Below, piece by piece: positions 7,872 through 59,956 of a stretch of DNA of 64,000 nt. The DNA is from Treponemataceae bacterium (GTDB lineage Bacteria > Spirochaetota > Spirochaetia > Treponematales > Treponemataceae), in contig JAXJWW010000104.1 of NCBI GenBank assembly GCA_036307825.1, positions 10,678 to 74,677 of the forward strand. Reading direction: 5' to 3'. Numbering within the stretch: position 1 is the stretch's first letter; every line of letters begins with the position of its first letter. Position numbers and translations under genes: made by a program. The notes beneath the pieces are model-generated. The model searched no databases, was not told where the DNA came from, and was given only the letters and a program-made list of their open reading frames with translations.

Positions 7872-8912
7872 CTATAATAAATTACAAAGTTCGTCAACTT
7901 GTTTTTGTGTTGTTGCCCAACTTGTTGCAAATCGAACAACAGTATGAGTTTTATCAAATTTTTGCCAGTAACTAAATGAAACAGATTTTTTCAATTCTTC
8001 CATTTTAGAATTTTCTAACACAATAAATTTTTGGTTAGTTGGTGAATTTATAAAAATTCTATAACCTTTTTCGATAAAAGTTTTTTCAATTTTATCTGCC
8101 ATCAAAATTGCGTTGTCAGAAATTTTAAAATATAAATCATCTGAAAAAAGTGTGTCAAATTGCAAACCTAAAACCCAACCTTTTGCAAGCAAGGCGCCAC
8201 TTTGTTTTATCAAGGTAAAAAAATGAGGAACTAAATTTTCTTGAGTAAAAACAACTGCTTCACCAAACATGGCACCAACTTTTGTTCCGCCTATATAAAA
8301 TGCGTGAGCATATTTTGCAATATCTTTTAAAGTTACATTTTCATTTTGATTTTTACTTGCAGAAATTCCGTAACCTAATCTTGCACCATCAATGTATAAT
8401 TTCAAATTGTATTGGTCGCAAATTTTTCTAATTGATTTTAATTCTTCCAAAGAATAAATTGTTCCAAATTCAGTTGGAAAAGAAATATACACAACACCCG
8501 GTTTTACAATGTGTGCGTTATTTTCATCATCATAATAATTTTGCAAATATAAAAGTAAATCCTTACAAGAAATTTTTCCGTCGTAGTTTGGAAGCATCGT
8601 AACTTTATGACCTTTAGCTTCGATTGCACCTGCTTCATGTTCGGTGATATGTCCTGTGTTTGCAGAAATCACAGTTTCATATTTATTTAAAAGCGCGTCC
8701 AAAACTGTAGCATTAGTTTGAGTTCCTCCAACTAAAAAATAAATTTCTGCCTTTGGACAATCACAAGCCTTACGGATTTTTTCTTTTGCACTTTCACAAA
8801 TTTCATCACAACCATATCCTGTCATTTTTTCAAAATTGATTTTTTGCAATCTTTCCAAAATTAAAGGATGACAACCTTCCATATAATCGCTATCAAATCG
8901 TAAAATACTCAT
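7872..8912 (-). CDS. threonine aldolase / beta-eliminating lyase family PLP enzyme
   Basis: 346 aa. N-terminal FDSDYMEGCHP and GGTKVGAMFGEA (PLP-Lys region) resemble low-specificity threonine aldolases. Confidence 0.6.
   Translation of the reverse strand: MSILRFDSDYMEGCHPLILERLQKINFEKMTGYGCDEICESAKEKIRKACDCPKAEIYFLVGGTQTNATVLDALLNKYETVISANTGHITEHEAGAIEAKGHKVTMLPNYDGKISCKDLLLYLQNYYDDENNAHIVKPGVVYISFPTEFGTIYSLEELKSIRKICDQYNLKLYIDGARLGYGISASKNQNENVTLKDIAKYAHAFYIGGTKVGAMFGEAVVFTQENLVPHFFTLIKQSGALLAKGWVLGLQFDTLFSDDLYFKISDNAILMADKIEKTFIEKGYRIFINSPTNQKFIVLENSKMEELKKSVSFSYWQKFDKTHTVVRFATSWATTQKQVDELCNLL
8882..8912. repeat. direct repeat copy 1 (first 31 nt of the aldolase-like gene)
   Basis: tataatcGctatcaaatcgtaaAAtaCtcat matches 9322-9352 at 27 of 31 positions. 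Confidence 0.85.
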
Positions 8913-8918
8913 GCTGTA

Positions 8919-8947
8919 ATTTTATATTGTTGTTTGATTTATAGCAA
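8919..8947 (-). promoter_or_regulatory. sigma70-like promoter, candidate leaderless start of the aldolase-like gene
   Basis: TTGCTA-17-TAAAAT on the minus strand. 6-nt gap to ATG 8912. No SD. Confidence 0.5.
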
Positions 8948-8973
8948 GAAGAAAGTAAAAATGCAAAATGCAC

Positions 8974-9002
8974 TTTACAAAATAATAGTATTTATTTATA
9001 AT
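8974..9002 (+). promoter_or_regulatory. near-consensus promoter for the small toxin-like ORF
   Basis: TTTACA-17-TATAAT. Predicted TSS about 9009-9011, immediately before the left inverted repeat. Confidence 0.5.
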
Positions 9003-9011
9003 TGATTTATT

Positions 9012-9028
9012 GGAAATGCCTAAGTTCA
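9012..9028. repeat. left arm of 17-nt inverted repeat
   Basis: ggaaatgccTaagttca is the reverse complement of 9258-9274 with 1 mismatch. Confidence 0.85.
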
Positions 9029-9086
9029 GGCGGTGTCTCCCAACTCAATCAGCATTATGCTGAAATAAAGACTAGGGAGGCTAACT

Positions 9087-9188
9087 ATGACTTGTGAAAT
9101 GATTATTAGTTTAGTAACTTGTGTTGCAACTATAATCGGAACAGTTGTAGCTCTGCTTTCTTACCTAAAAAAGAAAGATAAAGAGTAA
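9087..9188 (+). CDS. 33-aa hydrophobic peptide, candidate type I toxin
   Basis: MTCEMIISLVTCVATIIGTVVALLSYLKKKDKE: one TM helix plus a Lys-rich tail. AGGGAGG SD 6 nt upstream. Own promoter and terminator. Below the ORF-track size cutoff. Confidence 0.5.
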   Translation: MTCEMIISLVTCVATIIGTVVALLSYLKKKDKE

Positions 9189-9195
9189 AAAAATA

Positions 9196-9231
9196 AAACC
9201 GCCATAGTCCTCGAAACTCTTGGCGGTTTTT
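9196..9231. terminator. bidirectional terminator hairpin
   Basis: AAACCGCCA / TGGCGGTTT stem. T5 follows on plus, T7-rich tract on minus. Confidence 0.65.
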
Positions 9232-9257
9232 AACCAACAACGTGGAGATGACCAAAT

Positions 9258-9274
9258 TGAACTTTGGCATTTCC
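9258..9274. repeat. right arm of 17-nt inverted repeat
   Basis: tgaacttTggcatttcc followed by tcttttttt. Pairs with 9012-9028. Confidence 0.85.
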
Positions 9275-9283
9275 TCTTTTTTT

Positions 9284-9312
9284 AATATACACCTACTTGC
9301 GATTTAATGCAA
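9284..9312 (-). promoter_or_regulatory. sigma70-like promoter reading toward the toxin-like ORF
   Basis: TTGCAT-17-TATATT on the minus strand. Confidence 0.45.
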
Positions 9313-9321
9313 GTCTATTTT

Positions 9322-9352
9322 TATAATCACTATCAAATCGTAATTTATTCAT
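9322..9352. repeat. direct repeat copy 2 (orphan duplicate of the aldolase-like gene 5' end)
   Basis: tataatcActatcaaatcgtaaTTtaTtcat. Minus-strand reading gives MNKLRFDSDY versus MSILRFDSDY of the intact gene. Overlaps the stop of the 9345 gene. Confidence 0.85.
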
Positions 9353-9905
9353 ACTTTGCATTTATTTCATTTATAGCATCTGCCATAATTTTTTCAGCAT
9401 CAAATCCATCTACATCAAGCATCTGTGCAAAAATCAATTCTGTTTCTTTAATTCCAAAATAATCTTTACATAGACTTTCAATATAGTTATAAGAAAAATC
9501 TGGAATAAATTTTCCACCAGCAGTTGCAACATAATAAAGTTTTTTTGCCTTACACAATCCAACAGGTTTTCCATTTTCACCAAATTTTGTAACAAGACCT
9601 GTAACATAAATATTCTCGATAAAAATTTTTAATATTGCAGGAAATGATAAATCCCAATGAGGTGCAGAAATTACAATCTCATCAGCAGTTGAAAATAAAT
9701 TTGCCAACTTAAAAATTTCATCAGAAAAATTTTCTTGATTAACAAGTTCCGTTCGTTTTTCAATCATGGCTTCAGAATAAGGAGATAAGTTTTCATCTTC
9801 TAATTTTATTTCAATAATTTCATCATTAAATTTACTAAGTAAAACTTTTGCAAGCTTATCGGTTCTAGAAATTTTTCTAACACAAGCATTTACATATAAA
9901 ATCAT
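9345..9905 (-). CDS. flavodoxin-like fold NAD(P)H-dependent oxidoreductase
   Basis: About 186 aa. MILYVNACVR...ISAPHWDLSFPAILK layout resembles FMN-dependent NAD(P)H dehydrogenase/azoreductase-like proteins. ATG 9905 is preferred over the track TTG 9911. Confidence 0.55.
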   Translation of the reverse strand: MILYVNACVRKISRTDKLAKVLLSKFNDEIIEIKLEDENLSPYSEAMIEKRTELVNQENFSDEIFKLANLFSTADEIVISAPHWDLSFPAILKIFIENIYVTGLVTKFGENGKPVGLCKAKKLYYVATAGGKFIPDFSYNYIESLCKDYFGIKETELIFAQMLDVDGFDAEKIMADAINEINAKYE

Positions 9906-9911
9906 TTTCAA

Positions 9912-9920
9912 ATTATATCA
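9912..9920 (-). promoter_or_regulatory. extended -10 promoter, candidate leaderless start
   Basis: TGaTATAAT on the minus strand. 6-nt gap to ATG 9905. Confidence 0.5.
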
Positions 9921-9976
9921 CATTTTTTGTAATTAAACTATTTATTTCAACAAAAATATGATGTCTAAAAAATTTT

Positions 9977-10047
9977 GTCATGCTGAACTTATTTCAGCAT
10001 ATACTACATATAGTAAATAGATTCTAAAACAAATTCGAATTGATACA
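9977..10047. repeat. palindromic REP/MITE-like intergenic element, copy 1 (degenerate)
   Basis: tgtcatgctgaac..ttcagcat hairpin, then agtaaatagattctaaaacaaattcgaattgataca. Related to 55551-55639. Confidence 0.55.
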
Positions 10048-10061
10048 TCTATTTAATTTAA

Positions 10062-10097
10062 AACAAAAAAGAGATTTCTCATAAAGAAAAATCTCTT
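10062..10097 (-). terminator. rho-independent terminator of rtcB
   Basis: AAGAGATTT / AAATCTCTT stem followed by a T-run in the minus orientation. Confidence 0.7.
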
Positions 10098-10119
10098 AAA
10101 AAATTTTTATAAAAAAAAT

Positions 10120-11349
10120 TTATTCGGCCGCCTTAAAATTGTAAATCGGTTTAATGATTTTTACAATTTCGGCAGTTTCACCAATATTTGCAACAATATC
10201 ATCCATTGTTTTGTATGCCATAGGAGCTTCGTCTAAAGTGTCTTTGTTCACCGTACTTGACCAAATTCCAAACATCTCTGATTTAAATTCTTCTAAATCA
10301 AGAGTTTTTTTAGCTTTCATTCGGCTCATAACACGGCCTGCTCCATGTGGAGCGGAACAATTCCAATCTTCGTTGCCCTTACCAATACAAACTAAACTTC
10401 CGTCTCTCATATTGATAGGAATTAAAAGTTTTTCACCTTTTTTGGCACTTACGGCCCCTTTTCGCAAAATCATTGCACCCTCAGTTTCTGTATCGATATA
10501 ATTATGAATCGTTGTAAACTGTTCAATTATATCTTCTTGCTTTATATGAAGCCCGATAGAAATTGATTCAATCATTGCCTTTCTGTTTACCTTGGCAAAG
10601 TGTTGCATAATTTTCATATCGTTGATGTAATCTTCAAAAAGTTCACCGCTAACATAAGCCAAATCTTTTGGAACAGAAGTGATAACTTGAGATTTTAACT
10701 CTGCAAGTTTTTCTTCAATTTCAGATTCTCTTCCTTCAGCTTTTAAAGTTGCAATTAATTTTTCGCAATCCTTTTTTGAATTTTGATTTAATTGCAACCA
10801 TGCTTGTTCTTGATAATAATTTGCAATTTCAAGTCCAGCGTGACGACTTCCAGAGTGAACAACGATATATAAATTTCCTTCATCATCTCGGTCAGCTTCG
10901 ATAAAGTGATTTCCACCGCCCAAAGTTCCAACACTAAGCCATGCTCGGTATTTATCATATTTTCCGCGAACCTTGTCAAAGTTTACAGTTTCACCCAGAG
11001 CATGTGGGAACTTTCGAATATCCCGACCACAAGGAATATTTTTGCGAATGATTTTATCAAGTTTTGCTGGATCAAAATTTTTGCTAACTTCACTATCAGC
11101 ACGAATTACTAAAGTTTCCATTCCGCAACCGATATCAACGCCAACAAGGTTAGGAACAATTTTGTCGCCAATGGTCATTGTAGTCCCGATTGTGCAACCT
11201 GCTCCAGCGTGAACATCTGGCATAAGACGAATTTTTTGTCCAGAAGTAAATTCTTGGTCGCATAAAGTTTTTATTTGCTCTAAAGATTTTTCATCAATTA
11301 CATCTGTAAAAATTTTTGCTGTATTATAAATTCCTTCAACAGTTTTCAT
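10120..11349 (-). CDS. rtcB: RNA 3'-phosphate/2',3'-cyclic phosphate ligase RtcB
   Basis: GVDIGCGM, GGGNHFIE, HSGSRHAG and PHGAGR metal/GMP-His motifs. 409 aa. GGAGG SD. Confidence 0.9.
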   Translation of the reverse strand: MKTVEGIYNTAKIFTDVIDEKSLEQIKTLCDQEFTSGQKIRLMPDVHAGAGCTIGTTMTIGDKIVPNLVGVDIGCGMETLVIRADSEVSKNFDPAKLDKIIRKNIPCGRDIRKFPHALGETVNFDKVRGKYDKYRAWLSVGTLGGGNHFIEADRDDEGNLYIVVHSGSRHAGLEIANYYQEQAWLQLNQNSKKDCEKLIATLKAEGRESEIEEKLAELKSQVITSVPKDLAYVSGELFEDYINDMKIMQHFAKVNRKAMIESISIGLHIKQEDIIEQFTTIHNYIDTETEGAMILRKGAVSAKKGEKLLIPINMRDGSLVCIGKGNEDWNCSAPHGAGRVMSRMKAKKTLDLEEFKSEMFGIWSSTVNKDTLDEAPMAYKTMDDIVANIGETAEIVKIIKPIYNFKAAE

Positions 11350-11388: not shown

Positions 11389-11727
11389 TTATGCAGATTT
11401 TTTGAATTTACATTTTTGACATGTTACAAAATCTTTGTTCATACAATTTGCCGCGTGGTCTGAACAACAAGTTTCAATTTCCACAAGAGAATAGCAAATC
11501 AATTCGTCTAAAGCCACGCTAAATAATCTTGCAAGGACAATAAGATTATCTACTGTAGGAATACTTTTACCACTCTCCCAAGCATAAATTGCCTGTGGAT
11601 AATCGAACCCAAATAAATCTTGCAATTCATGGACGGTAAATCCATTTTCTTTTCTGAGGATTTTGATTTTGTTACCAGTTTGTTCTGGATTAATAACTGG
11701 TTTTAAGATGTGCTTAACAGTCTCCAT
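11389..11727 (-). CDS. XRE-family HTH regulator with Cys-rich C-terminus
   Basis: HTH segment IKILRKENGFTVHELQDLFG...IYAWESGKSIPTVDNLIVLARLF. C-terminal C-x9-CC-x6-C-x8-CxxC cluster. AAGGAG SD. Confidence 0.75.
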   Translation of the reverse strand: METVKHILKPVINPEQTGNKIKILRKENGFTVHELQDLFGFDYPQAIYAWESGKSIPTVDNLIVLARLFSVALDELICYSLVEIETCCSDHAANCMNKDFVTCQKCKFKKSA

Positions 11728-11954
11728 TGGTTTTTTCTCCTTATTGCAAAAAATTTCATGGCTTTAATTTTTAGTCCTTTTAGCCATGTGCTGTTTTGTC
11801 CATTAAATTTTATAAATGTAGGAATCACGCTTTTAAGTTGCACTTCTTGCATGTTGTCATTCTCACATGTTTTCATCGCATCAATGAACAATATAAAATC
11901 TGATTTAACTACATCTCTTTCTGTTTTAGGATTACCAGCAAAATTTGCGAACAT
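11703..11954 (-). CDS. hypothetical 83-aa protein, first gene of the XRE-rtcB operon
   Basis: Strong GAAGGAG SD 7 nt upstream. 25-nt overlap with the XRE gene. Basic C-terminus. No motif recognised. Confidence 0.5.
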   Translation of the reverse strand: MFANFAGNPKTERDVVKSDFILFIDAMKTCENDNMQEVQLKSVIPTFIKFNGQNSTWLKGLKIKAMKFFAIRRKNQWRLLSTS

Positions 11955-13736: not shown

Positions 13737-14228
13737 TTATTCAAAATAAGCCTGATATGGCACTTCTATTCTAGACTCGTCATTAAATGAAACACCGTAA
13801 CTTCCTTCACTTGGAAGATTATTTCCTAAAAGAACTTTATCAAAATAAACAGTAGCATTGTACAAACCACTTACATCAACTTTTCCGTCAAAATTTCCAT
13901 TTCCAGTAATTTTTCCACGAGTGATAATTTCTCCGTTAAAAATCCAACCTTCTTCATCACAATAATTTTCGTAACGAATAGTTACCAAGCCACCTAATCC
14001 ACTAATTTTTGCATGATAAAAAACTTTTCCACTGATGTTCCCTGCAACTTCTTCTTTTCCAAGTTTTGCAATATTCGGCTTTTTATTTAACAAATTTATT
14101 TTTTTATAACTTTCATTTATTTTGTGATTAAACAAAACAAAAAAATCTTTGTGAGTTATTGTTTCCAATCCAAACAATGATGAAATTAAAACAAACATCA
14201 AAATTGATAAAAAGACTTTCTTTTTCAT
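13737..14228 (-). CDS. hypothetical secreted protein
   Basis: Signal peptide MKKKVFLSILMFVLISSLFG. GGAGG SD. Confidence 0.5.
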   Translation of the reverse strand: MKKKVFLSILMFVLISSLFGLETITHKDFFVLFNHKINESYKKINLLNKKPNIAKLGKEEVAGNISGKVFYHAKISGLGGLVTIRYENYCDEEGWIFNGEIITRGKITGNGNFDGKVDVSGLYNATVYFDKVLLGNNLPSEGSYGVSFNDESRIEVPYQAYFE

Positions 14229-14284
14229 AAATCCTCCAAATAACTAATATAATAATAACACTTTTTGAAGGATTTATGTAAAAT

Positions 14285-15948: not shown

Positions 15949-15995
15949 CAAAAAAATCCCACTCCCTCTCGCACAAACAAGAAGAAAGTGGGATT
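15949..15995 (-). terminator. rho-independent terminator of glnA
   Basis: AATCCCACT / AGTGGGATT stem (23-nt loop) followed by a T-run in the minus orientation. Confidence 0.6.
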
Positions 15996-16046
15996 ATATA
16001 TCAAGAACAGAAATTGTGTAGCAATTTCGAATCCGTGTGATAACTA

Positions 16047-19617: not shown

Positions 19618-20460
19618 ATGGAAAACTTAAACAACAAAACACAAACAAAAAAAACTTTTTGGCAAAAAATTAAAAAGCCCTTTTTCTTTACACTTGCATT
19701 TTTGCCAATCATCATAGTTGCATCAATTTTTACTAGCCTTTACACATTTGACTTGTATCCACCAGAAATGTTAGAAGAAGCAATCGCAGCAGTTGGAAGC
19801 AAAACAATGTTCATGTTAGTTACTGCAATTCAGAATGTTGGTACAATTGCCTTTGCAACTTTCTTTGGATATATCCTTGCCGAAAAACTTGGGCTTATTC
19901 GTTCTATAAAAAAAGATGGAAAAATCAAAATTTTTGAAAAAAAAGCAATTTTGGTAACTTGCATTGTTTCAGTTATTTGCGGAATTTTATTCAGCTTAGA
20001 TTATTGGACATTTGGAGCAGTAATTCCACAAATTCAACAAGCAGACGGACTAGGACTAACACCAATATCTTTTGTTGCAAGTATTCTTTACGGTGGAATT
20101 TGCGAAGAACTTATGCTTAGACTTTTTGTGCTTTCACTTTTTGCTTTTATTATCTGGAAAGTATTTTTTAGAAAATCAACAAAATTGCAAGCAGAAAATA
20201 ATTCACAAATACAAATTTCCCCTGTAGTATTTTTGATTGCAAACATTGTTGCAAGTTTACTTTTTGCAGCAGGACATTTACCTGCAACACAAGTTACCTT
20301 TGGAATAACTCCGCTTATCTTATTCAGATGCTTTTTATACAACGGCGGAATGGGATATATTTTTGGATGGCTTTACATTAAGTACGGATTGCAATATTCA
20401 ATGCTTTCTCATGCCTTGTGCCATATTGTAAGCAAAGTAATTTGGTTATTATTCATATAA
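19618..20460 (+). CDS. CPBP (CAAX) family intramembrane glutamic endopeptidase
   Basis: EELMLRLF (EExxxR), FAAGH and HALCH motifs. Polytopic. Confidence 0.75.
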   Translation: MENLNNKTQTKKTFWQKIKKPFFFTLAFLPIIIVASIFTSLYTFDLYPPEMLEEAIAAVGSKTMFMLVTAIQNVGTIAFATFFGYILAEKLGLIRSIKKDGKIKIFEKKAILVTCIVSVICGILFSLDYWTFGAVIPQIQQADGLGLTPISFVASILYGGICEELMLRLFVLSLFAFIIWKVFFRKSTKLQAENNSQIQISPVVFLIANIVASLLFAAGHLPATQVTFGITPLILFRCFLYNGGMGYIFGWLYIKYGLQYSMLSHALCHIVSKVIWLLFI

Positions 20461-20550
20461 AAAAACAATTTGACAGATAGATTTTAACATAATAAAATAT
20501 AATTAGTAGAAATATCTATTTCAAACTGTTTTTTTTAGGAGAGTTTCAAG

Positions 20551-29563: not shown

Positions 29564-29570
29564 AATTGGA

Positions 29571-33266: not shown

Positions 33267-33305
33267 AAAGGTGAGTTTCTTTTTAGCACTATAAATTACA
33301 TAAAA

Positions 33306-33350
33306 AAATCCTTGCAAAATCAAGTTGAAATTTGCAAGGATTTTTCTTTT
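33306..33350. terminator. bidirectional rho-independent terminator
   Basis: AAATCCTTGCAAA / TTTGCAAGGATTT 13-bp stem, T-run on plus, A-run upstream. Confidence 0.8.
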
Positions 33351-33356
33351 TAAACT

Positions 33357-51133: not shown

Positions 51134-52408
51134 ATGCAAGATGCAATAAACTCAATAAAAAATCCTAAAAATCAAATTATTTGGATATATGGAAAAGCAG
51201 GAACTGGTAAATCAACTTTTCTTAATTATCTAAAAAATACGGTAAAACAAAAAAACACAGTATATCTTGCGCCAACTGGTATGTCAGCATTGCTTATATC
51301 AGGTCAAACAATTCATAGTTTTTTTCAAATTCAACCAACTTCTTTGTACATACAAAACAAAAGTAAGTCTAATTACAATAGAAGTCTATTAAACAAACTT
51401 TCGAGAGTAGATTTAATTGTTATTGATGAAATTTCAATGGTAAGAGCTGATTTGTTAGATGAAATTGATTACGAACTTAGAATTGCTACAGAAAATGACA
51501 CCCCTTTTGGTGGAATAAAAATGTTATTTTTAGGAGATCCATATCAGTTGCCTCCTGTGCTAGATAAAAATGTACAAAATATTTTTATGACGAAATATAA
51601 AAGTGCATACTTTTTTTCTTCAACTGTAATTAGGAATAATTTAAGTCTAATAACTCATATTGAATTTACAAAAGTTTTTAGACAAACTGATGAAAATTTC
51701 CTAAATATTTTGTCGTCTTTACGATTAGCAGAAAATATTACAACAAATACATTGGATAGTATAAACTCAAGAATTATTTATGATGAAGAAATTCCAAAAA
51801 ACATTATTCGTATTACAGGAACAAAAGCACAAGCAGAAAATTATAATTTAGTAGAATATACAAAAATAAATTCCCAAGAAAGAACTTTTATATACACTGG
51901 TGAAGGCAATATTCCACAAGACAAAGATCTCCCTTGTCCTAAAAACATAAAATTAAAAATCGGAACACAAATTTTATTAATTGCAAATGATCAAGGAAAA
52001 AGTTATGTAAACGGAACAGTAGCAACTATAACAGACTTTAAAGATGATTATATAATCGCTAAAAAAGAGAATGGGGCTGAAATATTTATAAAACGACATA
52101 CATGGGAAGGTATAAAATATGATTTAGTCGATGGCGAAATTGTCGAAAAAATTGATTATACATATACTCAATATCCAATACTTTATGGTTGGGCAATGAC
52201 AATTCATAAAGCACAAGGAAAAACATTCGAAAAAGTCTATATAGACCTTTCTACAGGACCATTTACAGAAGGACAAGCTTATGTTGCAGTATCTCGTGTA
52301 AAAAGTATTGACGGTTTATATTTGAAAACAAAATTATACACTAGAGATTTTTTTACTAATGGTATAATAAAAAAATATTTTAACTATATAAAATTGCTAA
52401 AAAAATAA
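51134..52408 (+). CDS. PIF1/RecD-like SF1 DNA helicase
   Basis: Walker A GKAGTGKST, Walker B LIVIDEISMV, GDPYQLPPV, TIHKAQGKTF and YVAVSRVKS motifs. The conserved N-terminal FELTCEMQDAI lies upstream of the first in-frame ATG. Confidence 0.8.
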   Translation: MQDAINSIKNPKNQIIWIYGKAGTGKSTFLNYLKNTVKQKNTVYLAPTGMSALLISGQTIHSFFQIQPTSLYIQNKSKSNYNRSLLNKLSRVDLIVIDEISMVRADLLDEIDYELRIATENDTPFGGIKMLFLGDPYQLPPVLDKNVQNIFMTKYKSAYFFSSTVIRNNLSLITHIEFTKVFRQTDENFLNILSSLRLAENITTNTLDSINSRIIYDEEIPKNIIRITGTKAQAENYNLVEYTKINSQERTFIYTGEGNIPQDKDLPCPKNIKLKIGTQILLIANDQGKSYVNGTVATITDFKDDYIIAKKENGAEIFIKRHTWEGIKYDLVDGEIVEKIDYTYTQYPILYGWAMTIHKAQGKTFEKVYIDLSTGPFTEGQAYVAVSRVKSIDGLYLKTKLYTRDFFTNGIIKKYFNYIKLLKK

Positions 52409-52418
52409 TCCTACCCTG

Positions 52419-52454
52419 CCCCGTAAAAATTTTTCTTTACGGGGTTATTTTTTT
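52419..52454 (+). terminator. rho-independent terminator of the helicase gene
   Basis: CCCCGTAAA / TTTACGGGG stem followed by TTATTTTTTT. Confidence 0.75.
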
Positions 52455-52529
52455 ACACTTCCCTATTTTCAACTTCATTCAAAAAATCGTAAATTCCGTC
52501 TTGGGACAAAATTCCGCGTTTTAAGTTTT
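52446..52529. repeat. direct repeat copy 1 (orphan duplicate of the 3' end of gene 53252-53545)
   Basis: About 84 nt nearly identical to 53245-53329. Minus-strand reading gives ...LKRGILSQDGIYDFLNEVENREV. Confidence 0.9.
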
Positions 52530-52585
52530 TTTTACTCTACACAAGTGATATAAACTGTGGTATATTTAAGCATAGGAGGATTGAA

Positions 52586-52834
52586 ATGCCATACACGCTG
52601 GTTGAAGAAAAAATTTCTCAAATTTCTAGTGAATTTCAACAAGAACTTATTGATTTTGTAGATTTCTTGCTTTACAAACAAAATTTACAGACAGAAAAAA
52701 ATTCAATTTCTCAAGAAAAACAAAAAAAACTTGATGCCCTTAATGCTATTTCTGGAATTTTAACGACAGAAGAATCAAATGCCATAAATGACTCAATTTC
52801 AGCGGGAATAAAATGCAAGGAAATTCAGTTATGA
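52586..52834 (+). CDS. antitoxin of the VapC module (DUF2281-like)
   Basis: 82 aa. AGGAGG SD. ATGA overlap with the PIN toxin gene. N-terminal SEFQQELIDFVDFLLYKQ resembles DUF2281 antitoxins. Confidence 0.6.
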   Translation: MPYTLVEEKISQISSEFQQELIDFVDFLLYKQNLQTEKNSISQEKQKKLDALNAISGILTTEESNAINDSISAGIKCKEIQL

Positions 52835-53229
52835 CATATTTTTTAGATACAAATATTATAAGTTATATATTAAATGGAAATACTAATGTCAAAAATAGAA
52901 TAGAGGAACTTATTTTACAGGATAATAATATTTCAGTTCCTATATTTGCTTATTATGAAATAAAAAGAGGTTTACTTTCTGTTGGTGCAACTGCAAAATT
53001 TGAACGTTTTGATAATTTTGTAAAAGTTTGTAATCTTGTAAATGTAGATATATCTACTTTTGATTTAGCATCTCAAATTTATGCACAATTAAAACAGACT
53101 GGAAATCTTATTGAAGATGCAGATTTACTCATCGGTGTATCAGCATTAGAACACAATGCAATTTTAATTACAAATAATGCTAACCATCTTCAAAGAATTC
53201 CAAATTTACAAATAGAAGTTATAAATTAA
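52831..53229 (+). CDS. vapC: type II toxin VapC (PIN domain ribonuclease)
   Basis: MTYFLDTNIISYIL N-terminal Asp, central acidic residues, C-terminal LITNNANHL. Start set at ATG 52831, overlapping the antitoxin stop. Confidence 0.8.
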   Translation: MTYFLDTNIISYILNGNTNVKNRIEELILQDNNISVPIFAYYEIKRGLLSVGATAKFERFDNFVKVCNLVNVDISTFDLASQIYAQLKQTGNLIEDADLLIGVSALEHNAILITNNANHLQRIPNLQIEVIN

Positions 53230-53244
53230 ATCATTTTCTTCTGA

Positions 53245-53329
53245 TATTTTTTTACTCTTCCCTATTTTCAACTTCACACAAAAAATCGTAAATTCCGTCT
53301 TGGGACAAAATTCCGCATTTTAAAGTTTT
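53245..53329. repeat. direct repeat copy 2 (functional 3' end of gene 53252-53545)
   Basis: Matches 52446-52529 with a handful of substitutions and a 1-nt indel. Confidence 0.9.
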
Positions 53330-53545
53330 GGGTAAAAGATTTTGTTCATCAAGTTGGTAGTCTTTTAGCCATTTGCCACTTTCATAATAATTAGTTAGAG
53401 ATTTTAATTTTTTTTGTAAATTTTTGTTTTTATAAAATTCCTCTTTGGATTTTTCAAAAGAAAATCTAAGGTCGTCAAAAAATTTTTCCATTTTGATTAT
53501 TCGAGAAACTGCAATTTTCAATTTTATTCTTTCTAAAAAACTCAT
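53252..53545 (-). CDS. small conserved hypothetical protein (DUF4298-like)
   Basis: 97 aa. YYESGKWLKDYQLDEQNLLPKTLKCGILSQDGIYDFL block. Confidence 0.5.
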   Translation of the reverse strand: MSFLERIKLKIAVSRIIKMEKFFDDLRFSFEKSKEEFYKNKNLQKKLKSLTNYYESGKWLKDYQLDEQNLLPKTLKCGILSQDGIYDFLCEVENREE

Positions 53546-53546
53546 T

Positions 53547-54878
53547 CTAATATCTATATTTTTTTCGGAATTTGATTAAAAAGATAATTGTTGTGATACA
53601 AGCTAAAACATCGGCAATAACCATAGAAAACCAAATTCCTTTTAAGCCAAAAATAAGGGGAAGAACCAAAATCGTTACGATTTGAAAAACTAAAGTTCTT
53701 AAAAAAGAAATTAGAGCAGAAATCAATCCATTATTTAAACTTGTAAAAAATCCACTTCCAAAAATATTTATTCCAGCAAATACAAATGAAATAATACTAA
53801 TTCTTGCTCCAGCAACTGACATTTCCATTAAATCTTTATCGTAACTTGCAAAAATTGAAACTAAAGGACGAGCAAAAACTTCGGCAAAGGCAACAAGAAA
53901 AAGTCCACCTAAAGTAATTATTGTTAAACTTTTTTTGAACATATTTTTAAGTTCATCATAGTTTTTTGCCCCGTAATGATAACTAACGATAGGACTACTT
54001 CCCATAGAATATCCAAGGAAAATTGCAATAAAGATAAAACCTAAATACATCAATACACCGTAAGCGGCAACACCAGTTTCTCCTGCGTATTTCATCAACT
54101 GAAGATTAAACAAAATTCCAACGATAGAAGCAGATAAGTTGTTTACCATTTCAGAAGATCCATTTGTGCAAGTTTTCAAAAATACTTTAGGATAAAATTG
54201 AGTTTTTCCAAGACGTAAAGGACTAGAATTATTTTTTCTGCAAAAATACACAATTGGAATAATTCCGCCAACACAATATCCGATAACAGTAGCAAATCCA
54301 GCCCCAGCAATTCCCCAGTCAAACAAAGCAATAAAAACATAATCCAAAATCATGTTTGTACAACCAGCAGCGATTGTTACTCGTAAACTATAATTAGGTT
54401 TTTCTGCCACAACATAAAAACTTTGAAACATTACTTGAATCATGTAAGCAGGAACAAAGGCAAATAAAATTCTTCCGTAGATAACACAATTTTTTAAAAG
54501 TTCACCTTCGGCTCCTAAAAACCTAGCAACTGGTTCAGCAACAAAAATTCCGATAACTGCAAAAATTAAACCTAAAAAAATTCCTACATAAACAATCATG
54601 GAAAAATATCGATTTGCAAGTTCACTTTTTCCTTCGCCTAAAGTTGCAGATACAATAGCACTTCCACCAGTTGCAAGCATAAAACCAACGGTGCTAACTC
54701 CCATAATAAGCGGCATCATCAAATTTATTGCGGCAAAAGAAGTTTTTCCCACAAAGTTAGAAACAAAAAATCCGTCTACAACGCTATACATTGATGTAAA
54801 AATCATCATCATAACAGACGGAAATACATACCTAAAAAGTTTTTTGTATGTAAAATGGTCACTGAGTTGAATATTCAT
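53547..54878 (-). CDS. MATE family efflux transporter
   Basis: 443 aa, 12 TM, MATE-like N-terminal segment. Confidence 0.8.
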   Translation of the reverse strand: MNIQLSDHFTYKKLFRYVFPSVMMMIFTSMYSVVDGFFVSNFVGKTSFAAINLMMPLIMGVSTVGFMLATGGSAIVSATLGEGKSELANRYFSMIVYVGIFLGLIFAVIGIFVAEPVARFLGAEGELLKNCVIYGRILFAFVPAYMIQVMFQSFYVVAEKPNYSLRVTIAAGCTNMILDYVFIALFDWGIAGAGFATVIGYCVGGIIPIVYFCRKNNSSPLRLGKTQFYPKVFLKTCTNGSSEMVNNLSASIVGILFNLQLMKYAGETGVAAYGVLMYLGFIFIAIFLGYSMGSSPIVSYHYGAKNYDELKNMFKKSLTIITLGGLFLVAFAEVFARPLVSIFASYDKDLMEMSVAGARISIISFVFAGINIFGSGFFTSLNNGLISALISFLRTLVFQIVTILVLPLIFGLKGIWFSMVIADVLACITTIIFLIKFRKKYRY

Positions 54879-57327: not shown

Positions 57328-57333
57328 ATATAT

Positions 57334-57342: not shown

Positions 57343-57360
57343 TTTTTTTTTAATAAAGTA

Positions 57361-57366: not shown

Positions 57367-57372
57367 AGTTTT

Positions 57373-58548
57373 ATGGAAGATTTAAAACAAAATTTCAATC
57401 AAAAATACGCAGAAATTTCTCAAAATCTTGTTTCTGCAACATTTGCAAAGCCAACAGTGGATTCAAAATTCAATAAAATCAAAATTAATATAAATAACCA
57501 CAGTTTTTTTGTGCAAATGTACACTTCTACACAGGCTTTTCACAAGAATTTATCAAATGAAGAACTTAAAACTTTTTTACAAGAAAATATCGGCGTAAAT
57601 TTTAAGCATGTTTATATAGAAACAACTGATAAAAAATTCACTTTTTTAACAAATAAAAAAGGAAAAATCACTATTTTAGAAAACAGAAATAATAAAAATC
57701 CAGTTGTTCAAGAAAAAAATTCTTCAAATAACTCAAAAATAAAAAATTACATAATTCAAGAAGGAAAACCAGTTCCCTTTTTAGTTCACTTAGGAGTTAT
57801 GAATAAGGACGGGAAAGTTCTTGCACAAAAATACGATAAATTCAAACAAATAAATAGATTTTTAGAATACATAAAAGATATTTTGCCAGAAATAAACAAT
57901 GGACAAACTTTAAAAATAATCGACTTTGGTTGTGGAAAATCTTATCTCACTTTTGCAGTTTATCATTTTATTAATGAAATTGAAAAAATCCCAGTTGAAA
58001 TTATTGGATTAGATTTAAAAGATGATGTAATTACAATGTGTAATCTTTTAGCAAAAGAATTTGGATACAAAAATCTACATTTTTACAACGGAACAGTTGA
58101 AGATTATTTTGCAAAAATTGAAGATAAAAAATGCGATTTAGTTATTACACTTCACGCTTGTGATATAGCAACAGATTACGCAATTGCTTCTGCAATAAAA
58201 CAAAATTCAAAGGCAATTTTGTCAGTTCCTTGTTGCCAACATGAGTTAAATCAAAATTATAAGCAAAGTTCTAATCAGGCAATAAATCAAATGTTAAAAT
58301 ACGGAATCGTAAAAGAAAGATTTTTATCTTTAACAACTGATGTTATGCGATGCGAACTTTTAAAAGAAAAAGGTTATTCAACTCAACTTTTAGAATTTAT
58401 CGATGTAAGTCACACACCAAAAAATCTTTTAATTCGTGCCGTAAAAAAGAAAAATTTTGACCAAAGTGAAAGTTCTACATCAAGTGGCTACAAAGAAATT
58501 GCAAACTTAGTGAATCAAGATATTTGTCTTGCAAAACTTATGGAATAG
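57373..58548 (+). CDS. SAM-dependent methyltransferase
   Basis: Motif I IIDFGCGKSYL, post-I GLDL. Start moved to MEDLKQNF (the track ORF from 57298 overlaps parA). Confidence 0.65.
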   Translation: MEDLKQNFNQKYAEISQNLVSATFAKPTVDSKFNKIKININNHSFFVQMYTSTQAFHKNLSNEELKTFLQENIGVNFKHVYIETTDKKFTFLTNKKGKITILENRNNKNPVVQEKNSSNNSKIKNYIIQEGKPVPFLVHLGVMNKDGKVLAQKYDKFKQINRFLEYIKDILPEINNGQTLKIIDFGCGKSYLTFAVYHFINEIEKIPVEIIGLDLKDDVITMCNLLAKEFGYKNLHFYNGTVEDYFAKIEDKKCDLVITLHACDIATDYAIASAIKQNSKAILSVPCCQHELNQNYKQSSNQAINQMLKYGIVKERFLSLTTDVMRCELLKEKGYSTQLLEFIDVSHTPKNLLIRAVKKKNFDQSESSTSSGYKEIANLVNQDICLAKLME

Positions 58549-58570
58549 GAATTGAGTGGAAGATAAAATT
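58478..58570. repeat. direct repeat copy A (methyltransferase 3' end plus first codons of the NifU-like gene)
   Basis: 58478-58545 matches 59830-59897 at 59 of 68 positions. tggaagataaaatt at 58557-58570 matches 59943-59956. Confidence 0.85.
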
Positions 58571-58581
58571 CTTTAATAATA

Positions 58582-58761
58582 TCAATATTTTATAGATGGA
58601 TTTAACATTATTTCTGATGATTTACATCTTGGACATTTTGTAGTGTAAATTTTACTATCATTCAAAGTTAATCCCAATCTAGCAGAATATTTACCAATAA
58701 AAGAATGTTTACATTTTTTACATAAAAGAAATACAGTTTCATTTGGTAGAGTTTGTCGCAT
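58582..58761 (-). CDS. 59-aa zinc-ribbon protein
   Basis: MRQTLPNETVFLLCKKCKHS...TTKCPRCKSSEIML: CxxC-x26-CxxC. Just below the ORF-track cutoff. No clear SD. Confidence 0.35.
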   Translation of the reverse strand: MRQTLPNETVFLLCKKCKHSFIGKYSARLGLTLNDSKIYTTKCPRCKSSEIMLNPSIKY

Positions 58762-58818
58762 TAAAACGTCTATAATGTAATGGGCATTTTATACAAAAAT
58801 ACCCATTACAAGAATTAT

Positions 58819-59046
58819 TTATTTAAGTAATTTTTCAGCTGAATTTGCAAAACTTGTAAGTATTTTACCAACCAGCCCAAAGAAACTAAATTTGTCATCT
58901 CCAGATTCTGTACCCATCATAGAAGCTCTCATTTTCATTTCTTCAACTTTTAATAACGCATCTTCTTTATTCATTTCAAACTCTTCTCTAGAAAGAGGTT
59001 GTTTACCTTGTTTCAACATATTATTTCTGTAAGTATCATAATTCAT
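58819..59046 (-). CDS. hypothetical 75-aa protein with amphipathic C-terminal helix
   Basis: GGGGGA SD. Starts 12 nt after the upstream gene stop. C-terminus FSFFGLVGKILTSFANSAEKLLK. Confidence 0.5.
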   Translation of the reverse strand: MNYDTYRNNMLKQGKQPLSREEFEMNKEDALLKVEEMKMRASMMGTESGDDKFSFFGLVGKILTSFANSAEKLLK

Positions 59047-59058
59047 ATATTCCCCCTA

Positions 59059-59322
59059 TTATTTATTTTGATTACATTTAGAAATAATGGCGTTTGCCCT
59101 TCTCTCTAAATCACTATTTGGTGTTTTCTTCAACAATACTAAAGCTTTTTCCGCATAATTTTTTGCAGCAGCATAAGCCCTTTGAGATTTTATATAATGT
59201 GGTTGAGTTTCTTTTGTTATGGGATGTCCATTTTTATAGTACGCCCATTCTCTATCAGCCCTTGCTAATTGAGTTTCTGCAGAACTAACATATTGTTTAA
59301 TTAATGAAAACTCGTCTCTCAA
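59059..59322 (-). CDS. hypothetical 87-aa helical protein
   Basis: AAGGAGG SD 5 nt upstream of TTG 59322 (the track ORF starts at 59343). No motif recognised. Confidence 0.5.
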   Translation of the reverse strand: MRDEFSLIKQYVSSAETQLARADREWAYYKNGHPITKETQPHYIKSQRAYAAAKNYAEKALVLLKKTPNSDLERRANAIISKCNQNK

Positions 59323-59343
59323 AAAATCCTCCTTTATCCACAA

Positions 59344-59373
59344 TTGTAGTTTTATTTAAAATAAACACTACAA
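59344..59373. promoter_or_regulatory. candidate operator palindrome in the divergent XRE intergenic region
   Basis: TTGTAGT-N16-ACTACAA between the divergent small-protein operon and the XRE gene. Confidence 0.35.
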
Positions 59374-59434
59374 ATTAAGTATATTTATCATTATACACGA
59401 TATATGTCGTATTATCAAGTATTTTATACGTAAA

Positions 59435-59791
59435 ATGCAGTATTTTCACATTATGGATTCAGTTTTTAAACAGACTTTACGTGCTGAAATGGATTTTCAA
59501 GACATAAAAGTAAAAGAACTTGCAAACAGAACGGGTATATCTCAAAGAACATTAGAAGGATACTTAGGAAGTAGAGCTTCAATACCACCTGCAGATGTTG
59601 CGGTAAAAATTGCTAATGCCCTCAATGTCTCAGTTGAATACTTGGTTACAGGAAAAAACAATAATCTTTCTAATGTAGTTAGTAAAAATAACGAATTAGA
59701 TGAAAAAATTAAGAATCTATCTATAAACAAAAAACTTATATTGAAAGATTTTATTGATTTAATTGATAACTATGAAATTAATAAAACATAA
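59435..59791 (+). CDS. XRE-family HTH regulator
   Basis: IKVKELANRTGISQRTLEGYLGSRASIPPADVAVKIANALNVSVEYLV. True start may be ATG 59453. Confidence 0.75.
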   Translation: MQYFHIMDSVFKQTLRAEMDFQDIKVKELANRTGISQRTLEGYLGSRASIPPADVAVKIANALNVSVEYLVTGKNNNLSNVVSKNNELDEKIKNLSINKKLILKDFIDLIDNYEINKT

Positions 59792-59829
59792 CAAAATGAA
59801 CGTATCCTAAAAGTTATCCAGTATTGTTT

Positions 59830-59956
59830 CATCAAGTGGCTACAAAGAACTTGCAAAGTTGATGGAACAAGATATTTGTCTTGCAAAACTACTAGAAAGT
59901 AACATATACTGAGAATATATTTTAAATATCGAGGTTTTATAATGGAAGATAAAATT
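59830..59956. repeat. direct repeat copy B (orphan methyltransferase 3' end, spacer, start of the NifU-like gene)
   Basis: Encodes ...SSGYKELAKLMEQDICLAKLLE versus ...SSGYKEIANLVNQDICLAKLME in the intact gene. Confidence 0.85.

Follow-up and report, generated by a model that had tools for sequence, protein, structure and literature searches.

Insertion with long target duplication has been described for RM systems (Furuta, Abe & Kobayashi 2010, PMC2853133; see also Nobusato et al. 2000, Gene 259:99), where duplications of 46-420 bp sometimes overlap gene 3' ends and occur without mobility genes, mostly in naturally competent species (PMC2853133). Here, a comparable arrangement was analyzed in a 64-kb stretch of DNA (the window) from a gut bacterium of the Treponema family (a Spirochaetota MAG species), in which three accessory cassettes (i-iii) lie between direct repeats of neighbouring gene ends; a fourth (iv) is known from sister strains only. 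As in the RM cases, the units are smaller than 20 kb, have no mobility genes and lie between direct repeats that are tens to hundreds of bp long, and a conspecific genome with an empty site has a single copy to which both repeats align. The repeats likewise vary in length, have unique sequences and may overlap gene 3' ends, and the cargo is of a selfish type that may be addictive. Unlike in the RM cases, the cargo consists of VapBC, a type-I-like toxin and an XRE cassette, so the restriction-enzyme DNA breaks suggested by the authors of PMC2853133 cannot apply. The host, a Spirochaetota MAG species from the gut, also differs, the copies are visibly mosaic, and the duplications of (iv) (22-36 nt) and (i) (31 nt contiguous) lie at or below those authors' 30-bp cut-off.

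CIMEs are cis-mobilizable, att-flanked elements deriving from ICESt1/ICESt3 of Streptococcus thermophilus; they have the att core used by a cognate ICE integrase in common, and members of that ICE family are found at the same site. The cassettes resemble them as small integrase-less units with direct repeats at a gene 3' end, one of which restores the gene, but no common core, cognate integrase element or multi-site use was found here. Allelic replacement is what defines minimal mobile elements, which leave the flanking gene ends unduplicated, in contrast to the gene-end duplications seen here. What the cassettes share with the Neisseria elements to which this term is applied (PMC3082526, PMC1538595) is that alternative cassettes without mobility genes occupy the space between the same conserved genes and are exchanged via homologous recombination in the flanks. 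The slot between aat (the name used here for the Leu/Phe-tRNA protein transferase gene) and MatE fits this pattern, as does the methyltransferase-NifU site. Mycoplasma IS1630 produces target duplications of 19-26 bp (as cited in PMC2853133), comparable to the 20-30-bp range of cases (i) and (iv); however, IS1630-type transposons have a transposase and terminal inverted repeats, whereas the former is absent here and none of the latter were found at the cassettes.

The earlier note on this DNA had reported the same architecture three times, and repeat pairs (i), (ii) and (iii) are all present where it placed them. When the window was compared with itself by BLAST, pair (ii) (52446-52530 / 53245-53329; 80/84 identical, E=2e-29) was the top non-palindromic self-match across the 64 kb, and pair (iii) (58478-58545 / 59830-59897; 68 nt, 87% identical, E=2e-16) was second, with an additional exact 14-mer, TGGAAGATAAAATT, at 58557-58570 / 59943-59956. 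Pair (i) (8882-8912 / 9322-9352) is 27/31 identical (E=0.007 window-wide) and is lengthened by gapped alignment to 8882-8946 / 9322-9378 (48/57 identical), so that the duplication also takes in the final ~9 codons at the 3' end of the flavodoxin-like gene. All pairs outscored 500/500 composition-preserving shuffles, and the structures are not assembly artefacts, since at each site 9-11 independent assemblies show the same junctions. The duplications measure ~57 nt for (i), 84 nt for (ii) (~104 nt in the L045/L040 sister lineage, where the right copy retains the right half of the terminator), 68 nt now and ~127 nt originally for (iii), and 22-36 nt for (iv); across this range of 22 to 127 nt, no common core was found among the duplicated segments of the four sites. 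Each pair comprises, as had been proposed, a copy that completes a host gene and an orphan copy, and translation of the copies bears out that the orphans read as homologous peptides: MNKLRFDSDY vs MSILRFDSDY for (i), NLKRGILSQDGIYDFLNEVENREV* vs TLKCGILSQDGIYDFLCEVENREE* (orphan/intact) for (ii) and SSSGYKELAKLMEQDICLAKLLESNIY* vs SSGYKEIANLVNQDICLAKLME* for (iii). The cargo described earlier (33-aa ORF; vapBC; XRE plus three small proteins) matches the ORFs and Pfam assignments (Table 1).

Table 1. Positions in the window of the repeat copies, inserted DNA and associated features.
Case	Feature	Position	Strand	Description
(i)	Left copy	8882..8946	-	Working aldolase-like 5' end and degenerate flavodoxin-like 3'-end orphan
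(i)	Functional 5' end, aldolase-like gene	8882-8912	-	Reads MSILRFDSDY
(i)	Degenerate orphan of flavodoxin-like 3' end	8913-8946		Inside left copy
(i)	Inserted DNA	8947..9321	+	375-nt type-I-toxin-like module (putative)
(i)	Near-consensus promoter	8974-9002	+	TTTACA-17-TATAAT
(i)	5'/3' pairing	9012-9028 with 9258-9274		Predicted
(i)	Toxin-like ORF	9087-9188		33 aa, hydrophobic; GGGAGG Shine-Dalgarno
(i)	Hairpin	~9198-9234		Directly 3' of ORF stop codon; from RNA fold
(i)	T-run	ends ~9290		
(i)	Right copy	9322..9378	-	Orphan aldolase start overlapping functional flavodoxin-like stop
(i)	Orphan aldolase start	ATG at 9352	-	MNKLRFDSDYKN...
(i)	Flavodoxin-like gene	9345-9905		Functional stop overlaps orphan aldolase start
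(ii)	Native terminator hairpin	~52416-52445		
(ii)	Left copy	52446..52530	-	Orphan DUF4298 3' end, just after native terminator hairpin
(ii)	Inserted DNA	52531..53244	+	vapBC-like type II toxin-antitoxin pair
(ii)	Antitoxin	52586-52834		DUF2281, Pfam E=5e-7
(ii)	PIN toxin	52813/52831-53229		Pfam PIN E=4e-13
(ii)	Right copy	53245..53329	-	Functional 3' end of DUF4298 gene (53252-53545)
(iv)	Unoccupied target	53526..53560	-	MatE stop / DUF4298 start junction
(iii)	Left copy	58478..58570	+	Functional Methyltransf_32 3' end, decayed intergenic remnant, orphan NifU start (GTGGAAGATAAAATT)
(iii)	Inserted DNA	58571..59829	.	Four genes
(iii)	Zinc-ribbon protein	58582-58761	-	59 aa
(iii)	Second small protein	58819-59046	-	75 aa
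(iii)	Third small protein	59059-59343	-	94 aa
(iii)	XRE HTH protein	59435-59791	+	118 aa
(iii)	Right copy	59830..59956	+	Orphan methyltransferase 3' end (59830-59913), native intergenic region, functional NifU start
(iii)	NifU functional start	ATG at 59942	+	

Cassette (i) is a putative module resembling the type I systems hok/sok, AapA1/IsoA1 and Fst/RNAII, whose organisation is described in PMC3874152. Common features are a hydrophobic peptide of ~33 aa whose tail is charged, a strong promoter belonging to the module, an mRNA rich in structure (RNA fold of -89 kcal/mol, z = -7.4) in which the 5' and 3' ends are predicted to pair and the Shine-Dalgarno is sequestered, and a family with multi-locus and tandem copies, the module core (8972-9292) being found again at three other loci with 72-90% identity. 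Unlike known type I modules, cassette (i) has no Rfam or Pfam family match, its toxicity is putative, and the one hint of an antisense antitoxin RNA is a promoter-like motif. A promoter-like motif at 8947-8919 (- strand) could now drive the aldolase-like gene. At the empty site, L035, both genes overlap directly as ATGAGTAA. Site (iv) is empty in the window and is filled by a paralogous toxin module (MTSELIISLVTCVSTVIGTVIALLSYLKKKDKE) in L004, L007, L008, L013, L017, L040 and L044, where the module sits between direct duplications with junctions that are invariant across three diverged lineages; the two copies in L004 are 22/22 identical.

Empty sites for cassette (ii) were found in L005, L008, L010 and L011, the last of which is 100% identical to the window across 583 nt on the right side. 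Among occupied strains whose junction could be read, the junctions were identical in the window and nine other strains with both copies, and the exact vapC protein occurs at a single site only (13 contigs, constant junctions). The left flank is hypervariable: at least seven different genes were found next to the cassette on that side. For cassette (iii), annotated from Pfam and PHROGs matches, empty sites were found in L004-L010 and the junctions are constant in the window and ten occupied loci (L048-L057); the exact XRE protein is again restricted to one site (24 contigs, constant junctions), and no match to the cassette was found in phage or plasmid collections. The Methyltransf_32 gene now ends LAKLME* rather than LAKL(M/I)ESNIY*. 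In L001/L002 (L038/L039), a different, much larger XRE-containing region adjoins the same methyltransferase remnant upstream of NifU and has a zinc-ribbon homologue in common with cassette (iii) (48% identity).

The earlier note had interpreted the cassettes as insertions with polymorphic empty sites, and conspecific metagenome contigs indeed provided single-copy empty sites for all three, the opposite of what it had named as evidence against this reading. Because all occupied strains have identical junctions, the sequences indicate that each cassette is a single historical insertion, now polymorphic; cargo type and parsimony, rather than an outgroup species, suggest the polarity of insertion over precise deletion. 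The orphan (right) copy of (iii) in L049 is 68/68 identical to the intact (left) copy of the window, and the duplications were therefore probably perfect when formed. Both copies of (ii) and (iii) show polymorphisms that also segregate in empty-site alleles, and the cassette-proximal 20 nt of orphan (iii) are 'type 1' beside four different methyltransferase alleles; the differences between the copies form a mosaic of alleles from the population. All of the simple insertions identified among the compared loci (4/4) carry such a duplication, which was not seen for the substitution-type differences (flavodoxin-like presence/absence, the aat-DUF4298 slot and L038). The duplication is not obligatory, however, as long flanking repeats are absent from the toxin-family member at the glnA site (L024) and flanking repeats are absent from relatives of cassette (iii) in three other contexts. 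No donor copy with pre-insertion flanks was found for any cassette, so junction microhomology cannot be scored; little weight attaches to the apparent 4-6-nt junction overlaps, which are located in AT-rich DNA.

The account we favour, with slightly better than even confidence, is that each cassette is one old recombinase-independent insertion with long target duplication, its survival favoured by neutrality and cargo, followed by homologous recombination. An illegitimate insertion would have landed a few codons inside a gene end, once per cassette, duplicating the target stretch between two breakpoints (~25-130 nt). Since the gene terminus or an overlapping stop/start junction falls within that stretch, the genes on either side are both restored to intact form, which would make the insertion nearly neutral. 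In a genome as tightly packed as this one, such near-neutral events would survive, and this selection filter may produce the apparent gene-end targeting. Self-stabilising or regulatory cargo (a type-I-like membrane toxin, VapBC, or an XRE switch with small proteins) would further favour retention, to the extent that it acts addictively. Cassette and repeats would later move between strains by ordinary homologous recombination, and probably be lost the same way; the two copies in one genome would then differ because recombination overwrites the repeats with population alleles. The homology-driven recombination invoked by the earlier note suits this later spread but does not give the origin of the duplication. 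For that step, the favoured mechanism would be a pair of template switches or strand joins guided by microhomology, occurring at a replication fork or gap and re-entering upstream of the point of exit. Homology-facilitated illegitimate recombination (HFIR) and (short-patch) double illegitimate recombination in natural transformation (bioRxiv 10.1101/2023.11.22.568220) similarly represent recombinase-free integration via microhomology annealing at replication forks and offer a plausible route to both junctions, but documented SPDIR products are 3-100 bp microindels and not kilobase insertions with long target duplications.

Other explanations were weighed against this account. Repeats of 60-130 nt could allow RecA-dependent mobility, whereby a cassette loops out and the circle (cassette plus hybrid repeat) re-integrates in other cells' empty sites by a single Campbell-type crossover, as hypothesised in the 'virus-like life cycle' of RM units (PMC2853133). 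The repeats would then serve as recombinase-less att sites. Such mobility, which we regard as unlikely, would suit the cassette-proximal part of orphan (iii), which stays with the cassette in every case whereas the methyltransferase allele on the opposite side differs, as well as L056, in which the final ~30 nt of the left copy contain the change from recipient allele to sequence linked to the cassette, and the occurrence of empty and occupied alleles on near-identical backgrounds (e.g., L011 and the window). However, it is unable to create the first duplication, double-crossover transfer with longer flanks and subsequent mosaic conversion accounts for the same patterns, no copy pair is the clean reciprocal chimera expected of a single crossover, circles or tandem amplifications appeared in 0 assemblies, and the 22-31-nt homology of cases (i) and (iv) is marginal for RecA. 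Rather improbable is HFIR from a donor carrying the cassette beside one flank without any duplication, with homology anchoring there and an illegitimate join on the other side, within the anchor-homologous region, leaving one donor and one recipient copy of the gene end. The hypervariable left flank of (ii) leaves one-sided homology only, and on this model the copies could have been different ever since insertion; yet two rare events per cassette would be needed when all four simple insertions share the pattern, none of these sites yielded a donor arrangement free of the duplication, both flanks of (iii) are conserved so that an illegitimate join is unnecessary, the copies appear originally identical (68/68, 22/22), and derivation of the aldolase upstream region of the window from a flavodoxin-less haplotype was not significant.

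The earlier note had instead taken the repeats as attL/attR of small non-autonomous, CIME-like elements, each with its own diverged gene-end copy and dependent for movement on a trans-acting tyrosine or serine recombinase from elsewhere in the genome. Gene-end insertion with a repeat-restored gene is the architecture that att-site integration yields, and the larger XRE region with its zinc-ribbon homologue at the same methyltransferase remnant could be counted in its favour. In line with that note, by which the elements encode no integrase, none is encoded locally: no Pfam match to a recombinase, integrase or transposase was obtained among ~60 window ORFs of >=100 aa, precomputed Pfam lists of neighbouring genes at related loci held no integrase or transposase families, and no recombinase was found in the 64-kb window or in ~70 retrieved loci, among them 10 kb from the L038 island. 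Moreover, the four sites lack a common core, the duplications at two sites of the toxin family are unrelated and a third site has none, vapC and XRE are each confined to one site, and the relatives of cassette (iii) elsewhere lack flanking repeats. Since the divergence between orphan and intact copies consists of circulating alleles (as in L049) with no element-specific arm, the repeat is not an element-borne att site; the att reading is not supported and is very unlikely. Scarcely credible is a history without an insertion mechanism, in which junction tandem duplications arose first and unrelated DNA came later between the copies, or in which occupied sites came first and precise deletion left the empty ones. 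Direct repeats of 60-130 nt readily permit deletion, which surely accounts for some empty sites, and no outgroup sets the polarity, but two coincident events would be required at four sites, none of the strains compared has a bare tandem duplication without a cassette, the cargo is accessory-type every time, and the toxin module is demonstrably multi-locus.

Overall, the closest known class is Kobayashi's 'insertion with long target duplication', the way in which the duplications form being an inference; with this pattern described for RM systems (PMC2853133), the earlier note's view that no such family is known was too strong. A pattern previously described, in the literature cited here, only for RM genes is thus found with toxin-antitoxin and regulator cargo, in Spirochaetota.

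Comparison of the window (31% G+C) with other strains of its source species, an uncultured gut Treponemataceae (GTDB representative MAG GCA_045645985.1, SGB_7194), revealed four independent insertions, each with a direct duplication of target DNA between its two breakpoints and none with mobility genes. Three lie in the window: a 375-nt type-I-toxin-like module between flavodoxin-like and aldolase-like genes (cassette i), vapBC at the 3' end of a DUF4298 gene (cassette ii), and an XRE gene with three small genes between methyltransferase and NifU-like genes (cassette iii). The fourth, found in sister strains, is a paralogue of the toxin module at the MatE/DUF4298 junction (cassette iv). The three repeat pairs in the window, claimed in an earlier note, proved real: in a whole-window self-comparison those flanking (ii) and (iii) were the top two non-palindromic self-matches (E=2e-29 and 2e-16), that flanking (i) was one of few other direct matches (E=0.007), and all pairs outscored 500 of 500 shuffles. 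Duplications measured 84 nt at (ii) (102-104 nt in locus L045), 68 nt contiguous or ~127 nt reconstructed at (iii), and 22-36 nt at (iv); at (i), the contiguous 31 nt noted earlier extended to a longer, two-gap alignment with 48 of 57 positions identical. The same note was also borne out in that translations of the orphan copies, which do not complete a host gene, were recognisably homologous to the gene ends, that the cargo comprises a PIN toxin with a DUF2281-type antitoxin at (ii) and an XRE protein with 59-aa (zinc ribbon), 75-aa and 94-aa proteins at (iii), and that the elements carry no recombinase. Long imperfect palindromes (36-79 nt) also ranked high in self-comparison, and are probably bidirectional terminators between convergent genes.

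Features of the window and of loci fetched from conspecific strains (L handles; coordinates are those of the window unless a locus is named)
Feature	Coordinates	Remarks
Long imperfect palindromes	316-351; 14221-14283; 20459-20535; 33288-33363	
Repeat pair of cassette (i)	8882-8946 / 9322-9378	
Insert of cassette (i)	8947-9321	
Toxin-module promoter	8974-9002	Near-consensus TTTACA-17-TATAAT; start of conserved core
Toxin-module mRNA 5'-3' pairing	9012-9028 with 9258-9274	Predicted fold
Toxin-module T-run	~9290	End of conserved core
RtcB	10120-11349	
HTH_3 protein	11389-11727	112 aa
Gene overlapping HTH_3 gene	~11700-11950	Unannotated, 81-84 aa
Type II RM pair	28136-30329	C-5 cytosine methylase 28136-29563 (+); TdeIII-family endonuclease 29571-30329 (-)
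Slot left of vapBC	51134-52408	PIF1-like helicase; equivalents in L005-L021, L040-L047
Alternative slot contents		PIF1-like helicase 424-472 aa; unannotated genes 156, 232, 244, 258 aa; Lactamase_B 392 aa; Peptidase_M78 + 151-aa gene; DUF723 + 168-aa gene
Insert of cassette (ii)	52531-53244	
Empty site for cassette (iv)	53526-53560	
NifU-start match, 14 nt	58557-58570	
Insert of cassette (iii)	58571-59829	
PF12784 (PDDEXK_2) gene, 275 aa	L014 1168-1995; L041 2650-3477; L044 1807-2634; L045 1241-2068; L046 1128-1955	
Fragmented DUF4298 gene	L004/L007 485-625	Internal deletion of window equivalent 53326-53474
Toxin units at glnA	L024 2168-4325	Window equivalent 15995-16044
Alternative aldolase junction	L036 380-640	
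Alternative region upstream of NifU	L038/L039 1-9900	

Many conspecific metagenome contigs (~85-100% nucleotide identity), retrieved via exact-protein look-ups, made up the comparison set. A contig scan of a genome collection yielded the representative MAG of the species and no other genome, so the comparison has no outgroup; one 85-kb contig of that MAG holds both the aldolase-like and NifU loci; a metagenome scan added three short loci, among them L035, an empty site for (i), and a look-up of the 186-aa flavodoxin-like protein returned one short contig. The earlier note held that a lack of polymorphic empty sites would count against insertion. Such sites, with both flanks alignable, were found in conspecifics for 4/4 cassettes, including all three of the window, and both flanking repeats aligned to one single copy there, which upholds the insertion reading. 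Each of the four insertions is placed either on a stop/start junction or just a few codons in from a gene end.

Four loci (L005, L008, L010 and L011) are empty at the vapBC site and have a single copy of the DUF4298 3' end directly after a terminator; rightward of the site, L011 and the window share 583 nt at 100% identity. Where both copies are present (the window and nine other strains), the cassette/repeat junctions were base-identical in alignment. In a sister lineage of the cassette (L045, L040) the left junction is unchanged and the right copy retains the right half of the terminator hairpin, which puts the original duplication at ~104 nt, reaching from the loop of the terminator to a point 85 nt within the gene. 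The PIN toxin (E=4e-13) and the 82-aa DUF2281 protein encoded upstream, whose gene overlaps that of the toxin, match a VapBC organisation.

This cassette borders a hot spot between aat (the Leu/Phe-tRNA protein transferase gene) and MatE, where the gene content left of the vapBC site takes at least seven alternative forms; some strains have the DUF4298 gene, others lack it or carry a decayed form, and the toxin slot is also variable. Slot junctions at times cut into the orphan repeat (L013, L018, L020, L040). In L004 and L007, which are without vapBC, the DUF4298 gene consists of two fragments, so the 'host' gene whose end is duplicated is itself dispensable. Right beside the hot spot, a gene of PF12784, the Rpn/YhgA-like nuclease family, is present or absent depending on the strain (the window is without it between 49932 and 50035); it is the only candidate recombination-promoting factor seen near any cassette.

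At the NifU site, L004-L010 are empty: 30 nt separate the methyltransferase gene from NifU downstream, and there is a single copy of the 68-nt segment; the cassette/repeat junctions were base-identical in the window and ten occupied loci. The orphan (right) copy always starts with a 'type 1' allele (CATCAAGTGGCTACAAAGAA), the left, intact methyltransferase ends comprise four different allele types, and further along both copies are patchworks of alleles known from empty sites. As for the ~127-nt extent to the NifU start that had been claimed, comparison of the left copy with the type-1 intergenic allele suggests that this copy first reached NifU codon 5 and then lost ~33 nt, although a sister lineage of the cassette (L048 type) is without the 14-nt NifU-start match. 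A chance origin of that match was considered, and the ~33-nt deletion was the better reading given the type-1 allele.

The methyltransferase-NifU site has two alternative contents. In L001/L002 (the same loci as L038/L039), a different XRE-containing region of >10 kb ends on a ~45-nt methyltransferase remnant and shares with cassette (iii) a zinc-ribbon homologue (48% identity; 60 aa in the L038/L039 copy). Upstream of NifU it encodes DUF1232 membrane proteins, a 790-aa repeat protein and the XRE protein, and is without methyltransferase or ParAB genes; it may be a much larger island, or else mark a rearrangement breakpoint at this site, its left end lying beyond the fetched stretch. ParB is intact in the window. 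Homologue searches with the zinc-ribbon protein returned only near-identical proteins. Three further genomic contexts hold relatives of the 94-aa protein (66-81% identity) alongside a 75-aa gene and a divergent XRE gene, which makes cassette (iii) a member of a wandering module family; none of these three contexts has long flanking repeats. Cassette (iii) had no match in phage and plasmid collections and generic HTH matches only in PHROGs and PADLOC.

The duplication around cassette (i) spans the overlapping stop/start junction of its two neighbors, taking in ~9 codons at the flavodoxin-like 3' end and 10 codons at the aldolase-like 5' end. In the empty locus L035 the flavodoxin-like stop overlaps the aldolase start (ATGAGTAA), with 29 nt common to the two alignments; the species representative has neither the flavodoxin-like gene nor the toxin module. 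The degenerate orphan stretch contains a promoter-like motif facing the aldolase-like gene. In the short contig L036, the aldolase-like 5' end (96% identical to the window) is joined to unrelated, G+C-richer upstream DNA, which represents either another arrangement of the locus or a chimeric assembly. The gene for an HTH_3 protein upstream of RtcB is overlapped by a small unannotated gene in all strains, and the two may form another small two-gene module attached to rtcB.

Cassette (iv) consists of ~400 extra nt exactly at the MatE-stop/DUF4298-start junction in several strains, with the paralogous module (MTSELIISLVTCVSTVIGTVIALLSYLKKKDKE) lying antisense to the operon between the junction duplications. 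Other copies of the module sit in L024, where they follow glnA, and in L029 at one more locus. The L024 contig, 88% identical to the window, carries three tandem toxin units, an XRE gene and a 160-aa gene between a terminator and the glnA stop, without a gene-end duplication. The predicted fold of the module mRNA (-89 kcal/mol, z = -7.4) pairs and thereby sequesters the Shine-Dalgarno sequence, so that a small hydrophobic 33-aa ORF would sit on a highly structured mRNA with an occluded ribosome-binding site, as in type I toxins. For an antisense RNA, the only indication was a 9/12 promoter-like motif on the - strand (9129-9102), with promoter-like sites numbering 3 vs 2.7 expected from shuffles. 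The 5'-3' closing helix was not recovered when RNAalifold was run on 12 module copies (three extracts truncated 5'), and the module gave nothing better than E=2 against Rfam and no match against Pfam. The ORF and the predicted fold are compatible with a module that works like a type I toxin, which would be a new RNA/peptide module in human-gut Treponema-family bacteria.

Each cassette appears to descend from one event, since junctions are base-identical across strains and vapC and the XRE gene occur only at these sites (exact vapC protein in 13 contigs, all at the (ii) site; exact XRE protein in 24 contigs, all at the (iii) site). The duplications were most likely perfect when made and later overwritten piecemeal by homologous recombination, because the L049 orphan of (iii) matches the intact copy of the window at 68/68 positions, the (iv) copies in L004 match at 22/22, and copies carry segregating empty-site alleles; at (ii), copies and empty-site alleles likewise share the same segregating polymorphisms. 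The diverged target copies are thus read as patchworks of population alleles and not, as the earlier note had supposed, as att arms brought in by the elements.

That note had read the repeats, as one of two options, as attL and attR of integrase-less cis-mobilizable (CIME-like) units. Site-specific integration is disfavored, as the insertion sites have no conserved core, the duplications of the toxin family are unrelated at two sites and absent at glnA, vapC and the XRE gene each occupy one site, and searches turned up no integrase: neither the ~60 larger ORFs in the window nor the 0.38-1.26 kb inserts matched recombinase, integrase or transposase families, and no cognate integrase-bearing element was found in the window or the fetched loci, among them the alternative NifU-site island (10 kb). 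Integron cassettes would be expected in an array beside attI with an IntI integrase; neither an array nor an integrase was seen, and the repeats are gene ends and not attC-like imperfect palindromes. No terminal inverted repeats were seen at the insert ends, as would mark a MITE or non-autonomous insertion sequence; the inverted arms of (i), 17 nt each, are set back from the insert ends by 65 and 47 nt and coincide with the mRNA ends, and duplication length varied from 22 to 127 nt, unlike the short, fixed-length target duplication of such elements.

Among recombinational origins, a Campbell-type crossover between the repeats may move a unit after insertion but would be unable to create the first duplication. 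Homology-facilitated illegitimate recombination, in which the cassette is joined through a homology-anchored illegitimate event, would have been favored as a two-haplotype origin had the aldolase upstream region 8913-8971 come from the flavodoxin-less haplotype of L033. That derivation was rejected, with an alignment score no better than 23% of shuffles; by gapped alignment the region is a degenerate copy of the flavodoxin 3' end. The homology-facilitated route would also need, for every cassette, one more donor arrangement of a kind that was not observed. One illegitimate event with staggered joints explains the data most economically. We favor a proposal in which two template switches or strand joins occur at a replication gap or fork and the target stretch is duplicated because the point of re-entry lies upstream of the point of exit; double illegitimate recombination (bioRxiv 10.1101/2023.11.22.568220) follows the same logic. 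Where genes overlap or abut, only those insertions whose duplication regenerates both termini would survive, and such selection would account for the gene-end bias.

The earlier statement that no such family had been described was too strong, since 'insertion with long target duplication' has been published for all types of restriction-modification (RM) unit, mostly from naturally competent species and with the mechanism unknown (PMC2853133; Nobusato et al. 2000). Furuta et al. 2010 defined it by an empty conspecific genome with aligned flanks and a single copy of the target, a duplication >30 bp and an insert <20 kb without other mobile-element genes, and used R and M genes in the cargo for screening. 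The present cassettes share every structural feature, (iv) being borderline at 22-36 nt, but differ in cargo, which is VapBC, a type-I-like toxin, or XRE with small proteins. The type II RM pair in the window has no long flanking direct repeats, unlike the toxin-antitoxin (TA) cassettes. A 2013 review mentions this insertion mode for RM only and not for other TA systems (PMC3874152), and a full-text literature search returned no report of it for TA modules; the present cases therefore add non-nuclease cargo and the Spirochaetota to a known mode. They also resemble the minimal mobile elements of Neisseria in that alternative cassettes without mobility genes occupy one interval between conserved genes (aat-MatE, methyltransferase-NifU).

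A broader scheme, which we consider rather improbable, is that this species has a general, recombinase-independent way of inserting DNA while duplicating 25-130 nt of target, and that small addiction modules, including a previously undescribed, multi-locus type-I-toxin-like family landing antisense on operon stop/start junctions, then exploit the host-made repeats in place of att sites, with RecA mediating their excision, amplification and re-integration. If true, Kobayashi's hypothetical 'virus-like life cycle' would apply to TA modules as well as to RM units, and many natural junctions would become available for inferring the insertion mechanism.

Insertion with long target duplication has been a mobility mode without a mechanism since 2000, conceptually tied to DNA cutting by restriction enzymes. 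Overall, the present set provides clean, multiply replicated natural data on this old unsolved mode, with an architecture that has precedent and a mechanism that we infer. For annotation, a strain-variable cassette is signalled by an orphan fragment of a gene end lying within 0.4-1.5 kb of its intact counterpart. The same footprint here surrounds cargo predicted not to cut DNA (an RNase-type toxin, a membrane peptide and a transcription regulator), in a host from another phylum and with four events in one 64-kb neighborhood, which argues that the duplication is made by the host's own replication or recombination machinery, not by the cargo, and that survivorship in compact genomes produces the gene-end bias.
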